IMG/VR virus record: IMGVR_UViG_3300024350_000006 | Source: a virus | Strand: one strand, 5' to 3' | DNA: 64,000 nucleotides | The notes under the pieces: generated by a model | Databases searched by the model: none | Told to the model about the DNA's origin: nothing | What the model saw: only the letters and a program-made list of their open reading frames with translations | In this document: positions 13,649 to 31,939 of the stretch, piece by piece | Position numbering within the stretch: the first letter of the stretch is position 1 | Layout: the number at the start of each line of letters is the position of its first letter | Made by a program: the position numbers and the translations under genes

Positions 13649-13725
13649 GGGTGCGTAACTCAACTGGTTAGAGTAATCGGCTTTTAACCGATAAGTTGTG
13701 AGTTCGAGTCTCACCGCACCTACCA
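13649..13725 (+). tRNA. tRNA-Lys(TTT)
   Basis: Cloverleaf, loop CTTTTAA. Confidence 0.95.
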
Positions 13726-20392: not shown

Positions 20393-20448
20393 CAAAATTA
20401 CAACAGTTGACATTAATGCACCAAATCGTTAAAATAGCGGTATAGTAA
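20369..20448 (+). promoter_or_regulatory. early sigma70 promoter with upstream palindromic boxes
   Basis: TTGACA(20407)-17-TAAAAT followed by AGCGGTATAGTAA, nearly identical to the promoter at 29157. Confidence 0.75.
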
Positions 20449-20465
20449 ACGATAAGGAGCAAGCA

Positions 20466-20708
20466 ATGTTAACAACTAAACAAGCACGTGAAATTGTTAA
20501 TAAACAAATTAAATATTTTCAGAGCTGGACGGATAAAAGTCGCGCTAGTGATGGTGAAGCGATGCGTAATGTTTGTTTTCACGTGGGCTACCTTACTAAA
20601 GAAAGTGATATTGCTAAAATTAAAAATAGTCTAGAGCTTGCTGGGCATACTGGCAAGACTAGGTTGATGGGTGGTTATCTGCGTTTAACCAACTTGGAAA
20701 TAAATTAA
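20466..20708 (+). CDS. hypothetical early protein
   Basis: AAGGAG RBS downstream of the promoter. Confidence 0.7.
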   Translation: MLTTKQAREIVNKQIKYFQSWTDKSRASDGEAMRNVCFHVGYLTKESDIAKIKNSLELAGHTGKTRLMGGYLRLTNLEIN

Positions 20709-20816
20709 TTAAAAAAGTAGTTGACAGTAATTGCACTAGATGATATAATATAAGACTGCACTAAACGATGCAGCCCAAGTAGTAGAAAAAAGTTCTATAA
20801 CAATTAGTAAAACAAT

Positions 20817-20900
20817 GCCCTGGTGGTGGAATGGTAGACACGCTAGTCTTAGGAACTAGTATCGCAAGGTGTGGGAGTTCGAGTCTCCCCTGGGGCACCA
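20817..20900 (+). tRNA. tRNA-Leu(TAG)
   Basis: Long variable arm, loop CTTAGGA. Confidence 0.95.
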
Positions 20901-21125
20901 TATTAAAATATATTAGGTTACCTAGCCAGTAGGGGGCCTAGAAGAGGATAACCACTTGACGGAGTGGCTCTTGCTAGGTCTCACGAAACCTTGAGATAAT
21001 ATCAGGAGGACGCTGGAACAACTAGGAACGTAATGTGTGACACAGACAAATCCGTGGACGGCACGGTTGGGCAGAGTTCAAAGGCTGCGATCTCTGTGAA
21101 GCATCCTAATATATTTTAATATGGT
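20897..21125 (+). ncRNA. stem-closed RNA cassette 3
   Basis: Perfect 21 bp inverted repeat ACCATATTAAAATATATTAGG / CCTAATATATTTTAATATGGT around a multi-hairpin insert. Confidence 0.65.
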
Positions 21126-21291
21126 ACAAGACTGTTCATATAACACTGCAATGGGATATGACAGGCTGCGTAAGTGTATTGGCTGGCACAGAAGCCCCAG
21201 TAGCGGAGAGTTGAAGCACTTGCAGGTGTGGATGAGTTCCGTGACCGGGCGTCTAGGTTGGGTTCGAATCCCATCGCATTTGTTTGCACCA
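21123..21291 (+). ncRNA. long tRNA-like RNA
   Basis: TGGG-TTCGAAT-CCCA T-arm and ACCA 3' end, but no standard cloverleaf. Confidence 0.5.
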
Positions 21292-21426
21292 TATTGAAGC
21301 ACATTTCTGTCATTGCCGTGCCAGCTTCACGGTGAGTACAAGAGTACGGAAGTAGCTACCCGACAGGTTGTACAAAGTTACAAGTGGGTTAATGACAGCC
21401 CCTTGGGAGTGTGTTTCAATATGGTG
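21287..21426 (+). ncRNA. stem-closed RNA cassette 4
   Basis: CACCATATTGAAGCACATT / AGTGTGTTTCAATATGGTG. Confidence 0.65.
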
Positions 21427-21427
21427 G

Positions 21428-21456
21428 TTGACATTAAAAGAATTTAGCTGTAATAT
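21428..21456 (+). promoter_or_regulatory. sigma70-type promoter for the large ncRNA
   Basis: TTGACA-17-TAATAT. Confidence 0.55.
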
Positions 21457-21461
21457 AGATA

Positions 21462-22348
21462 CTTAGGGAGTTTAATCTCTTGTTAGGCGGTTCGCCGTCT
21501 AACTAAGGATAAGTGGCGTGAGTCACCCAAAGCAGAATCCTCCTACAGGACTGCGCCAGAGATGGTCCAGTTAAACAAGCCTGCTCACTACCGCGAGGTA
21601 GCGATCACTGATAAGACCGGTGGTTGTAACAATGAAGCTGGTGTAGTGGAAAGAACTTGTATCGACTAGCCCGCAAGGGAACTAGGGTGCAAGGAAAGTA
21701 ACAGGTGGTGCTGACTTCACTACAAAACCAACCAGTTAGTTGGTATGAGAAAGGGTAGTGCATTTGTCCAAGGTTTCGCAGCCAAGGGCTTGTGTGCAGT
21801 ATGAATGGTACTTGGGGCTGCTGTGAGGCGTCACAAGAATCGTGAAATACTACTGAGTAGCCGGCAGGCGAAAGGTACGTGGTGTGTTGTATCGTGTATT
21901 CCAAAAGAGTATGCGGCAACTGGAGCAGCACATCATAGTAGGTTGATATAGCTCATTGGTAGAGCAACAGTCCTTTTAAACTGTAGGCAGTTGGTTCAAA
22001 TCCAACTATCATTAAACAAAAACGCAAAGACTGCTCCGGTTGTATGTGAAAAGCATCTAACACTTAGGGCGTAAGCTAACTAAGTTCAGTCTAACCCGCA
22101 AGGTGAAACTGATTTGTACTAGAAGATTCGTAGCTCGCAAGGCTTAATGGACCGCAAGTTCAACGGGTAATAAGGTACAGAGTAGCATACAATGACAAGA
22201 CTACTGCCTGTCTTTAAACGGCGATGCTGCAAGCAGACTGGATCACATAGCGATATGGATCTTGTGGATGTCGTGGAGAAGATTGGCTCGCAAGGCTGAC
22301 TATAATACCCGAGGTGCTTGTAGTTAAGATGTAATCTCAGTCTTAACA
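21462..22348 (+). ncRNA. large ornate ncRNA, GOLLD-like
   Basis: ~880 nt without a credible ORF, elevated GC, many GNRA-capped hairpins (CCGCAAGG, CGCGAG, GCGAAAG), inside a phage tRNA cluster, embedded tRNA-like domain. Confidence 0.7.
21942..22014 (+). pseudogene. embedded tRNA-Lys-like element with 8-nt anticodon loop, no CCA
   Basis: D-arm GCTC/GAGC, ACAGT-CCTTTTAA-ACTGT, T-arm GTTGG-TTCAAAT-CCAAC. Confidence 0.75.
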
Positions 22349-22438
22349 CTTTCTAAAACACATTGTAGTGGATTTCACAAGTATGAGTCGCATTCTAAAG
22401 AGTGCCCTTGAGATTGGATATAGTGTGTTTCAGAAAGT
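22348..22438 (+). ncRNA. stem-closed RNA cassette 5
   Basis: ACTTTCTAAAACACATTGTA / TATAGTGTGTTTCAGAAAGT. Confidence 0.6.
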
Positions 22439-22439
22439 C

Positions 22440-22630
22440 AAGAATCCGGTTACTACTTTCCTAAAAGTAGCGTATGGCACACGACAAGGCCCGGTGGCTA
22501 GGGCACCGTTAGCGTTACTAGAGACAGACGACCTAGCAGCGTGGACACTTCGTCGGCCGTCTGCCAAACAGTGTTCGGACAGGGTAACAACTCCAGGATA
22601 GGGGCGACCGTGGAAAAGCGTGGCCTAACC
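22440..22630 (+). ncRNA. unknown structured RNA (family A, copy 2)
   Basis: TACTAC...AAGTA and GGACAGGGTAACAACTCCAG motifs shared with 13278-13480. Confidence 0.55.
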
Positions 22631-22632
22631 AA

Positions 22633-22791
22633 TATATTAGCAAGTGTTATCGATGAAACATTGGGTATCGTAAACTGATCATTTACTATGCGGGCCTAAC
22701 TGGCGTGGAACAGGTCCTGACATAACCAGCCATACGCTCTGGAACGGAAGCACCGGACTCCTAAATTGGCACGATAGCACTTACTAATATA
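22633..22791 (+). ncRNA. stem-closed RNA cassette 6 (divergent stem)
   Basis: TATATTAGCAAGTGTTATCG / CGATAGCACTTACTAATATA. Confidence 0.55.
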
Positions 22792-22803
22792 ATACTAATA
22801 TAA

Positions 22804-22878
22804 GGTTCCATAGTATATCGGTTAGTACACCGCCCTGTCACGGCAGAAGGAGGGGTTCGACTCCCCTTGGGACCGCCA
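22804..22878 (+). tRNA. tRNA-Asp(GTC)
   Basis: Cloverleaf, loop CTGTCAC. Confidence 0.94.
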
Positions 22879-22953
22879 AGTTTCTCTACACTACATCTAA
22901 GCCTTGATAGGTAGGGGAAGGCAGGTGGCTTAGGCTTGCCGAGAGTTTTTATT

Positions 22954-23030
22954 GCACCGTTAGACATCTGGTTGAGGTCACCACCCTTTCAAGGTGGCTA
23001 GAGCGGGTTCGAATCCCCTACGGTGTACCA
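22954..23030 (+). tRNA. tRNA-Glu(TTC)
   Basis: Cloverleaf, loop CTTTCAA. Confidence 0.92.
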
Positions 23031-23141
23031 AGATGCACAGTGTCGCTTTACGCTGTGGCAGGACGGCCTCTGTATCCTAGGACTCAAGCCTCTCAGACTG
23101 CAACTAGAGTTCTCGCAAAAGAACATAGCAAGATTTAGATT

Positions 23142-23228
23142 GGGTGCTTAGTCCCGTAATGGTATCGGGGGCAGACTGTAAATCTGTTGTCTTTGGCCTT
23201 CTCTGTTCGAATCGGAGAGCACCCACCA
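23142..23228 (+). tRNA. tRNA-Tyr(GTA)
   Basis: Loop CTGTAAA, variable arm. Confidence 0.93.
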
Positions 23229-23244
23229 AGTTAAGAAAGTAGAT

Positions 23245-23448
23245 ATGTATAAAGTATATTGGACCTACGGTGATGAAACCTACGGTCAAGAATTTGAAGA
23301 TATGACAGAAGCACTTAATTATTGTCAGCATCTTAGAAGTACTGGTAGAAAGTATGTTACTATGTGCAGCGAGCTTGCTGATATGGTTGGCGAGTTTGGT
23401 GTAACGGAAACTGGACCTGGTTATGATTGGAAAAAACGTAGAGATTAA
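23245..23448 (+). CDS. hypothetical protein
   Basis: 67 aa ORF filling the space between two tRNAs. Confidence 0.7.
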   Translation: MYKVYWTYGDETYGQEFEDMTEALNYCQHLRSTGRKYVTMCSELADMVGEFGVTETGPGYDWKKRRD

Positions 23449-23449
23449 T

Positions 23450-23527
23450 CCGTCCTTAGCTCAGTAGGATTAGAGCATCAGGCTACGAACTTGAAGGTCG
23501 GGGGTTCGACTCCCTCAGGACGGTCCA
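23450..23527 (+). tRNA. tRNA-Arg(ACG)
   Basis: Cloverleaf, loop CTACGAA. Confidence 0.94.
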
Positions 23528-23538
23528 AAAATAATTAA

Positions 23539-23784
23539 ATGGATTTAATAAAAAACATTTCAGAGAAAGCCAAGGAGTCAGTGCCCAAGGGAGTACTGGC
23601 TCCTGACCTTTGGATAGAACATTATAATAAAATATTTGCTAGGTTAGTTGTACAGGAATGTCTAGACATTTTAAATGAACACATTCGGGAAGACAGTAAA
23701 GAAGAGAGGGATATATACTTAAAAAGTTTTAGACAGGATCTAAAACAACATTTTGGTCTAGGGAGAAATCAAGACAATGAATAG
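23539..23784 (+). CDS. hypothetical protein
   Basis: FARLVVQEC...HFGL, paralogous to the next ORF. Confidence 0.65.
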   Translation: MDLIKNISEKAKESVPKGVLAPDLWIEHYNKIFARLVVQECLDILNEHIREDSKEERDIYLKSFRQDLKQHFGLGRNQDNE

Positions 23785-24073
23785 CAATCTATTGGACGAC
23801 CTTATGTATCAAGCAGGTATGACTGCTCAGGGTTGCTGGGACAATCTTGACGATTATGATAAAGAGGCCATACTGAGATTGGCTAAATTAATAGTGCAAG
23901 AGTGTGTAAAATCTTGCGGTAGCCAGGCAGACAAGGCTAACATCTTAAAAACTTTTGGCCTGCCTGTGGAATCCAATGTTAAATATATTAGTCCTGAAGC
24001 ATCAGGTAGTGTGGACTCTCAATATAGAAGAAGATATAACCTAGCACCCACTCAGGGAGTAAATAATGACTAA
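23777..24073 (+). CDS. hypothetical protein
   Basis: LAKLIVQEC...TFGL. Confidence 0.65.
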   Translation: MNSNLLDDLMYQAGMTAQGCWDNLDDYDKEAILRLAKLIVQECVKSCGSQADKANILKTFGLPVESNVKYISPEASGSVDSQYRRRYNLAPTQGVNND

Positions 24074-24214
24074 GAAAAAAGTCAAAACTGATACTGAACT
24101 AGATAAAAAATGTAATGCAGCAATAAAAAGAGTTAATAAACATATAGATACACTTGTTGCACGACATTTAAAAGAGATGGGACTTGTCGTAACTGATACT
24201 AAAAAAATAATTTA

Positions 24215-25267
24215 ATGAAACCCAGTCATTTTTATTTCGACGATAAAATATTAGAACGCGAACAATTACTTTTTAAACAGGCAAGATATCTAGGACACGA
24301 ACTATCTGTCAATAACTATCGCACACTTCCACAGGACAATAGTGGTAGAGTGTTAGTTAAAAACAACAACGGTATAGAGTGTATAGAAAATGTCTGCCGC
24401 CACCGCCAAGCAGTAATGCTAACAGGCAGTGGAGAAACATCAAACATTATTTGTCCATTACACGGCTGGACCTACAATCTAGAAGGCGAACTTGTTGGCG
24501 CCCCACATTTTGATCCTTGCCCTAATAGACCACTAAGAAAATTTAGCACACAGAGCTGGAACGGTCTATTTTTTGAATCAGGTAAGTTTAACATTGTTCG
24601 AGATCTTATTGGTATGAGAGCTGGTAAGTATTTTGATTTTAACAATTACCAGTACCATAGCACTCAGGAACATCATTGTGATTACAACTGGAAGACCTTT
24701 ATAGAAGTCTACCTAGACGATTATCACGTGGTACCTTTCCATCCTGGCCTTGGTAATTTTGTAGATTGTAATAAACTAGACTGGCAGTTTGGTGACTGGT
24801 ATAGTGTGCAGACTGTGGGAGTTCATAATGAATTGCGCACTCCCGGTACACCAGTTTATCGTCGCTGGCACGATGTATTAATGAATTATCGTAAGGGACA
24901 AATACCTGAATTTGGGGCAATATGGCTGACCATCTATCCTAATGTAATGGTGGAATGGTATCCTGAAGTTTTAGTAATTTCTAGTCTGTGGCCGGAAACA
25001 CCACAGCGCACAAAAAATATTGTTGAATTTTATTATCCCGAGGATATAGCTTTATTTGAACCTGAGTTTGTTCAAGCTCATCAGGCTGCCTATATGGAAA
25101 CCTGTTATGAAGATGATGAAATAGCAAGGCGTATGGATCAGGGTAGATGTCATCTTAATAACAATAATTATAGTGATTACGGACCTGTACACAATCCTAT
25201 GGAACTAGGTCTAGAATATTTTTACAAGTATTACAACAATTATGTTTTTGGTTTATTTGGCGAATAA
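24215..25267 (+). CDS. Rieske non-heme iron oxygenase alpha subunit
   Basis: CRHR...CPLHGWTY Rieske motif; NWK...DDYHVVPFH iron site. Confidence 0.93.
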   Translation: MKPSHFYFDDKILEREQLLFKQARYLGHELSVNNYRTLPQDNSGRVLVKNNNGIECIENVCRHRQAVMLTGSGETSNIICPLHGWTYNLEGELVGAPHFDPCPNRPLRKFSTQSWNGLFFESGKFNIVRDLIGMRAGKYFDFNNYQYHSTQEHHCDYNWKTFIEVYLDDYHVVPFHPGLGNFVDCNKLDWQFGDWYSVQTVGVHNELRTPGTPVYRRWHDVLMNYRKGQIPEFGAIWLTIYPNVMVEWYPEVLVISSLWPETPQRTKNIVEFYYPEDIALFEPEFVQAHQAAYMETCYEDDEIARRMDQGRCHLNNNNYSDYGPVHNPMELGLEYFYKYYNNYVFGLFGE

Positions 25268-31864: not shown

Positions 31865-31939
31865 ACTTCGGTGGCAGAATGGTTGATGCTCCCATCTCTA
31901 AAATGGGCTAAATGGGTTCGAATCCCATCCGAAGTACCA
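31865..31939 (+). tRNA. amber suppressor tRNA (anticodon CTA)
   Basis: ACTTCGG/CCGAAGT acceptor, CCCAT-CTCTAAA-ATGGG anticodon arm, canonical T-arm, ACCA. Confidence 0.9.

Follow-up and report, generated by a model that had tools for sequence, protein, structure and literature searches.

A phage GOLLD RNA carries a conserved tRNA-shaped linker domain with a Lys/Asn-type anticodon loop and an unstable anticodon

Results

A GOLLD RNA in a phage tRNA island

We examined IMG/VR record IMGVR_UViG_3300024350_000006, a stretch of viral DNA of 64,000 nt (hereafter the window), and within it a tract of 887 nt at positions 21462–22348. The original prediction had described this tract as free of ORFs and enriched in GC, with its own promoter and many GNRA-capped hairpins, and every one of these features, the promoter as a promoter-like site, was found where it had been placed. 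Only short mechanical ORFs occur in the tract (the longest, of 108 aa, is on the minus strand), its GC content is 0.462 vs 0.394 in the window, and it holds five GNRA hairpins with stems ≥4 bp, where other 887-nt stretches of the window average 0.76. CGCAAG hairpins, likewise five in number, can be made out in its sequence as well. The setting is that of a phage, as the window encodes 28 other tRNAs together with helicase, virion protein and ribonucleotide reductase genes; no close match to the window was found in a collection of cultured phages. A tRNA at 31865–31939 bears the anticodon CUA, that of an amber suppressor, with an encoded CCA, and is labeled 'Pyl' by ARAGORN. Since 5 of the 47 long plus-strand frames in the window still terminate in TAG, recoding is not evident here despite this tRNA.

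Membership of the tract in the GOLLD family (Rfam RF02032, attributed to Weinberg et al., 2009) had been guessed from size and context, and a search with the Rfam model bears the guess out. Using cmscan, we found that RF02032 matches 21879–22343 on the plus strand with 214.4 bits (E = 3e-59; gathering threshold 150), and that the match spans model positions 1–416 of 416, pseudoknot included, without truncation. In the cmscan alignment, the bracketed pseudoknot strands and the CGCAAG hairpins of the 3′ domain stand in register with the model. ROOL RNA, a family against which the tract was also to be compared, is likewise a large ornate phage RNA that occurs near tRNA islands and forms a cage with an internal linker, but it is unrelated in sequence and fold, and neither ROOL nor any other large-RNA family in Rfam gave a match at the gathering threshold across the whole window or at E ≤ 1 within 20400–24300. 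The tract shares with other GOLLD RNAs the match to the full model, the conserved 3′ domain with its pseudoknot, a variable 5′ domain, a length of ~0.9 kb and a location in a phage tRNA island. Judged by its sequence, the locus encodes a true GOLLD RNA and lies inside the tRNA island of a large uncultivated phage.

Relatives of the RNA in cultured and uncultivated phages

Relatives were collected by blastn against cultured phages and by two scans of IMG/VR with 16-nt motifs, one taken from the linker and one from the 5′ domain. Among cultured phages, blastn returned GOLLDs in phiCbK-type Caulobacter phages and in Sinorhizobium phage Phosso (L001–L003; 165–187 bits). The linker-motif scan yielded 28 GOLLD loci and one more copy of the phiCbK-type sequence, and the 5′-domain-motif scan at least 30 further GOLLD loci. 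The closest relatives among those collected are ~25 IMG/VR GOLLD loci that share 72–78% identity with the window over most of the ~0.9 kb (nhmmer, blastn), and all seven relatives that we checked pass the RF02032 threshold (166–226 bits). In total, 62 related phage GOLLD loci gave 47 distinct linkers, of which 44 could be parsed as tRNA-like elements, one was decayed, one was missing and one was cut off. A scan of bacterial genomes with the linker motif for a clue to a prophage or host (nhmmer) gave at least 120 chance matches, with no GOLLD among the matches listed.

The phiCbK-type phages and Phosso are the cultivated-phage relatives of the window, and they carry an orthologous tRNA-like domain at the same position and between the same flanking motifs. 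They differ from the window in that their identity is ~70% and is confined to 185–250 bases around the last 5′-domain hairpin and the tRNA-like domain, and in that their anticodons are CUU, UCU or, in an odd loop with G33 and U37, UCC. Depositors annotated the element as tRNA-Lys or tRNA-Gly, both labels occurring in phiCbK-type phages, or left it unannotated. The phiCbK-type phages also encode a permuted tmRNA, on the strand opposite to the GOLLD and ~25–345 nt upstream of its start (L002:698–1017 and L003:699–1017, both minus). In phiCbK itself (L003), the GOLLD with its tRNA-like domain spans ~1041–2024.

Architecture and ends of the RNA

From the Rfam match and the relatives we place the whole RNA at 21462–22348 on the plus strand (~885 nt), with a conserved core running from ~21465 to 22343; all features described below are on the same strand. 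A putative sigma-70-like promoter (TTGACA-17-TAATAT; score 10/12) occupies 21428–21456 and ends 9–10 nt 5′ of the conserved GOLLD start, conservation beginning at ~21465. An 11/12 promoter match ending 9–12 nt before the same conserved start is present in 5 of 17 relatives, and in most of the remaining ones the GOLLD directly abuts an apparent tRNA 3′ end. GOLLD RNAs are characteristically made as a single long transcript that increases during lytic growth, and the feature of the window that speaks for such expression is the promoter-like site.

The 5′ domain (21465–21942) forms many predicted GNRA- and UUCG-capped hairpins. RF02032 covers only the last hairpin of this domain, the linker and the 3′ domain, and the 5′ half was tested through relatives: aligned with those of 13 relatives, the ~480-nt domain is predicted to form 138 pairs, and compensatory changes occur in 77 of these (RNAalifold, 14 sequences). 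Most of the domain is closed by a predicted long-range helix between CCUAC at 21542–21546, which is invariant in 14/14 sequences, and GUAGG at 21938–21942, the last G of which doubles as position 1 of the tRNA-like element. In the alignment CCUAC/GUAGG becomes CCCAU/GUGGG in phiCbK-type phages, a compensatory change. Read two bases further, the 3′ strand is a nearly invariant GUAGGUU in the close clade and GUGGGUU or UGGGUU in phiCbK-type phages and Phosso. The hairpin at 21879–21937 corresponds to RF02032 positions 1–62 in the cmscan match, is the last helix before the linker, and has covarying pairs in alignment columns 499–556.

The tRNA-shaped linker domain, which was delimited by the Rfam tRNA model, ARAGORN, a structural parse and covariation, follows at 21942–22014. 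A 16-nt linker motif at 22018–22033, the one used as a search pattern and invariant in the window, Phosso and the phiCbK-type phages, leads into the 3′ domain, which includes the pseudoknot and lies at 22034–22343 (cmscan, model positions ~140–416).

Two hairpins with long closing stems (up to ~20 bp) bracket the RNA. One, at 21287–21426 (−58.7 kcal/mol, z −5.63), lies just 5′ of the promoter-like site and outside the GOLLD; the other, at 22348–22438 (−31.9 kcal/mol, z −5.25), flanks the RNA directly after its 3′ end. No intrinsic terminator was found 3′ of the GOLLD, and the downstream hairpin may be an end-forming or processing hairpin that sets the GOLLD 3′ end. Further upstream, the spacer between a tRNA-Leu (20817–20900) and the upstream hairpin cassette contains a T-arm-like GGGTTCGAATCCC stretch at 21254–21285, in which neither ARAGORN nor Rfam called a tRNA or tmRNA.

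The linker domain has the covarying arms of a tRNA and lacks a chargeable end

Intact D, anticodon and T arms, an 8-nt anticodon loop, a weak acceptor stem and a missing CCA had been claimed for 21942–22014, and our parse of the element confirmed each of them. The Rfam tRNA model scores the element at 59.3 bits and ARAGORN labels it 'tRNA-???'. Its D arm (21951–21965) and T arm (21990–22006) are paired at 4/4 and 5/5 positions and its anticodon stem (21967–21971 with 21980–21984) at 5/5, and the elbow nucleotides are conserved. The acceptor has five Watson-Crick pairs, a G-U at 1–72 and a mismatch at 2–71, with a kept stub formed by 21945–21948 and 22007–22010. The discriminator is A73 and is followed by AAC where CCA would be expected, unlike the free-standing tRNAs of the window, 27/28 of which encode CCA. 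Set against a canonical tRNA-Lys(UUU), the element has the arms but lacks the 7-nt loop, the 7-bp acceptor with a free 5′ end and the CCA; an ordinary tRNA-Lys(UUU) with CCA is encoded elsewhere in the window, at 13649–13725.

The folding energy of the isolated element is unexceptional (z −0.96), which is common for tRNAs, and it is covariation, rather than energy, that provides the structural support. Across 22 distinct orthologues, 90.9% of stem cells are paired, compared with 63% in shuffles, and double changes occur at 19/21 pairs. None of 500 shuffles reached the observed pairing and covariation, and controls with a slid register were 34–45% paired. The D stem (100% of cells paired), anticodon stem (97%) and T stem (98%) account for the conserved shape, and the acceptor follows at 76%.

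The weakness of the acceptor is unevenly distributed. Over 44 distinct elements, acceptor pairs 4–7 are kept in 93–95%, and pairs 1–3 in 48–55%, which is close to chance; CCA follows the element in 2/44. The outer acceptor pairs are not kept because position 1 sits in the GUAGG/CCUAC helix of the GOLLD scaffold. With its first base in a GOLLD helix, a 4-bp acceptor stub and no CCA, the element is therefore probably a built-in, non-chargeable module, and the comparative data are consistent with the earlier description of a non-chargeable Lys-like arm.

An orthologous element is found at the same place, between GUAGGUU and the linker motif, in nearly all 62 loci, and this position is shared by contigs of freshwater phages and by the phages of Caulobacter and Sinorhizobium. 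A free tRNA with an anticodon equal to the embedded one accompanies the GOLLD in 8/12 informative relatives. Three types of locus depart from the common arrangement. The embedded copy at L111:3680–3752 has a perfect 7-bp acceptor, C73 and CCA together with the odd anticodon AUG (A34); this could be a tRNA-His-like gene that is releasable from its GOLLD, and some embedded copies may therefore be real tRNAs. L235:4711–5551 is a GOLLD of the same clade with a linker of only ~40 nt and no tRNA-like domain, a natural deletion control from which it follows that the domain is not essential for every GOLLD. In L313, L289 and L276, the embedded element lies ~80 nt 5′ of GCAAAG in the linker motif; its D-loop has lost GG and the T-loop is degenerate, and the anticodon arm is intact with the loop CUGUUAA.

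An embedded pseudo-tRNA had been singled out as a special feature of this locus. That does not hold, as such a domain is the rule in this GOLLD clade and has been published for a Mycobacterium GOLLD, where Northern blotting detected no separate product of the internal pseudo-tRNA (Behra et al., 2019, PMC6582537). Morgado et al., 2020, as cited in PMC12990946, also describe a Mycobacterium GOLLD with an internal tRNA, and the same source points to PMC7549688 for Mycobacterium GOLLD arrays. As here, the Mycobacterium GOLLD carries a tRNA-like gene in the inter-domain linker, there within a horizontally acquired tRNA array. It differs in clade and host, and its anticodon is of Phe type rather than of the Lys/Asn type seen here; as far as we could find, neither loop-length variants nor rapid anticodon turnover are reported there. 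The window thus resembles the GOLLD family in having a variable inter-domain linker able to hold a tRNA, and differs from it in that this clade has a fixed tRNA-shaped domain for a linker instead of a loose spacer, a difference that leaves family membership unaffected.

The anticodon loop keeps its frame and changes its anticodon

The anticodon loop of the element, CCTTTTAA (21972–21979), has 8 nt and is known from a single assembly; our searches turned up no further copy of this exact phage. Among the relatives, 40 distinct 7-nt loops share a common frame (C32 in 85%, U33 in 95%, U35 in 88%, U36 in 93%, A37 in 93% and A38 in 100%) within which position 34 varies (G in 17, U in 15, C in 5 and A in 3). 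The resulting anticodons are GUU (16), UUU (10), CUU (5), UCU (3), AUU (2) and UCC, GAU, AUG and UUG (1 each), so that 33/40 are NUU anticodons of the Lys/Asn box. With 85–100% conservation of its frame the loop is not drifting freely, and something therefore reads it, possibly in decoding.

The anticodon itself is unstable. Seven different loops occur on one unchanged anticodon stem, and at a body identity of at least 85% the anticodon differs in 12/23 pairs of embedded elements vs 18/524 pairs of free tRNAs from the same contigs, figures to be taken as a contrast and not as a probability because the pairs are not phylogenetically independent. Loop length varies as well. Loops of 8 nt occur in 4/44 elements, and loops of other than 7 nt in 4/49 embedded vs 3/785 free tRNAs (Fisher p = 3e-4). 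The four 8-nt loops are that of the window, in which the additional C stands on the 5′ side, that of L288, in which it stands on the 3′ side, and those of L046 and L062; the last two are related loops on stems that differ at 3/5 pairs, and so have been kept through divergence. Loop-length variants arose at least three times. The nearest relatives collected for the window all have 7-nt loops, and the extra base of the window is therefore a recent, lineage-specific insertion.

The exact 8-nt loop of the window was not found inside other GOLLDs in our scan, which returned two free-standing tRNAs with it (L347 and L348). L347 also admits a reading with a 6-bp stem and a 7-nt loop. L348:1618–1690, on the minus strand of IMGVR_UViG_3300046479_000008, is a free tRNA with a 7-bp acceptor, A73, CCA and an 8-nt loop identical to that of the window; no GOLLD was present within the 2.8 kb examined around it.

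An internal specifier that pairs with the anticodon was considered and rejected, as no column of an alignment of 45 full-length sequences covaries complementarily with position 34 or 35; the columns with the highest mutual information for the anticodon positions all lie in the tRNA body itself. The self-complementary UUAA of the loop, through which loops might kiss, is missing from some variants. As far as we could find, a conserved loop frame combined with instability of anticodon and loop length has no published description.

Discussion

Cryo-EM has shown GOLLD RNAs as cages of 12 or 14 chains in which the 5′ and 3′ domains fold separately and the linker, unresolved in the structures, points inward and sometimes holds tRNAs (bioRxiv 10.1101/2024.12.08.627333). 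The solved examples are env-38, with 14 chains (PDB 9MEE), and the GOLLD of Streptococcus agalactiae, with 12 (9L0R) (PMC12990946). By homology with these two structures, the RNA of the window, probably transcribed from its own promoter within the phage tRNA island, would fold into separate 5′ and 3′ domains and assemble into a many-chain cage with the inter-domain linker facing the interior. That linker is a tRNA-shaped domain built into the scaffold, in all likelihood neither released nor charged, and would act as a built-in tRNA mimic, the best-kept part of which is an anticodon stem-loop of Lys/Asn type. Selection would fall on the cloverleaf shape and the Lys/Asn-type loop frame, not on a given codon, and the 8-nt loop would be a lineage-specific one-base insertion into the usual CUUUUAA, tolerated because the element would not decode. 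To this joint reading, a GOLLD RNA with a selected, scaffold-fused, non-released and non-charged tRNA mimic in its linker, we assign a probability of roughly 0.75.

A further reading would give the mimic a target. A cage containing a dozen or so non-chargeable Lys/Asn-type stem-loops that are uncleavable or slowly cleaved could absorb a host factor that targets or reads anticodons (for example, a nuclease of PrrC, RloC or AriB type) and so spare the real tRNAs, with the changeable wobble base and the repeated 8-nt loops as traces of an arms race. Several observations fit: the anticodon arm is the best-kept part and stays intact even where D- and T-loops have decayed, as in the L313 type; 33/40 seven-nt loops carry Lys/Asn-box anticodons in a canonical frame; the anticodon, above all its wobble base, turns over much more rapidly than in free tRNAs; loop length has changed repeatedly; and phage tRNAs with anticodon-loop changes are known to evade host nucleases (PMC10264068). 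The case is nonetheless purely circumstantial, as no nuclease, repair or trigger gene was found near the locus, where only metabolic and housekeeping families were seen, and cryo-EM places the linker inside a closed cage, where it is not obviously accessible. Lys and Asn codons are, moreover, simply the commonest in AT-rich phages. We regard bait or decoy function as unlikely.

Very unlikely, in our estimation, is a real tRNA precursor, from which RNase P and a 3′ nuclease would release a tRNA that is given CCA and charged, to serve as a tRNA-Lys prone to +1 frameshifting or reading four bases. The good Rfam tRNA score, the A73 discriminator and the canonical loop frame are those of a tRNA, the embedded L111 copy has a full acceptor stem and CCA, and the free tRNA of the unrelated contig L348, with full acceptor and CCA, indicates that the 8-nt loop of the window can exist in an apparently working tRNA. 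The element also resembles the +1 frameshift suppressors (Salmonella suf mutants and engineered four-base decoders) in having a loop one base larger on a normal anticodon stem; as the accounts in PMC3617221 and PMC9094753 present them, however, these suppressors are free, charged tRNAs with full acceptor stems, and the element has no acceptor end and is fused into a larger RNA. Against release and charging stand the near-chance pairing of the outer three acceptor pairs in 44 elements, the use of position 1 by a GOLLD helix, the absence of CCA in a phage that encodes it in 27/28 of its tRNAs, and the canonical tRNA-Lys(UUU) already present in the window. Unnatural anticodons (AUU, AUG) and G33 or C33 occur among the orthologues, release would split the GOLLD in two, and the Mycobacterium pseudo-tRNA gave no excised product (PMC6582537).

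An error of assembly or sequencing, with an ordinary 7-nt CUUUUAA as the true loop, would explain why the extra base is seen in one assembly and why the closest collected relatives all have 7-nt loops. We consider it highly improbable, given that the additional base, a C, has just one C next to it and does not lie in a long homopolymer, that three other GOLLD-embedded loops have 8 nt, with those of L046 and L062 kept through divergence, and that the same 8-nt loop recurs in the independent contig L348. Barely credible is a functionless passenger, that is, a tRNA gene captured in the variable linker and decaying neutrally with the 8-nt loop as part of the decay, for which the aberrant loops, lost acceptor pairs and missing CCA, the domain-less L235 and the type with decayed D- and T-loops could be cited, but which is at odds with three arms that are 97–100% paired with many compensatory changes among GOLLDs sharing only ~70–78% identity, with a loop frame conserved at 85–100%, and with a position kept across freshwater phage contigs and the phages of Caulobacter and Sinorhizobium.

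Reports of embedded tRNAs in GOLLD RNAs, a pseudo-tRNA among them, have already been published, and taken as a single locus the one described here is ordinary. Its value lies in the comparison, in which a selected and probably non-chargeable tRNA mimic keeps a conserved Lys/Asn-type loop frame, lets the wobble position run free and repeatedly acquires 8-nt loops. This pattern points to the anticodon arm and offers a modest new handle on GOLLD function, and the same arrangement is carried by the tractable Caulobacter phage phiCbK. If true, the decoy or sponge reading would give GOLLD RNA its first function, and the tRNA-shaped domain would be the working end of this clade.
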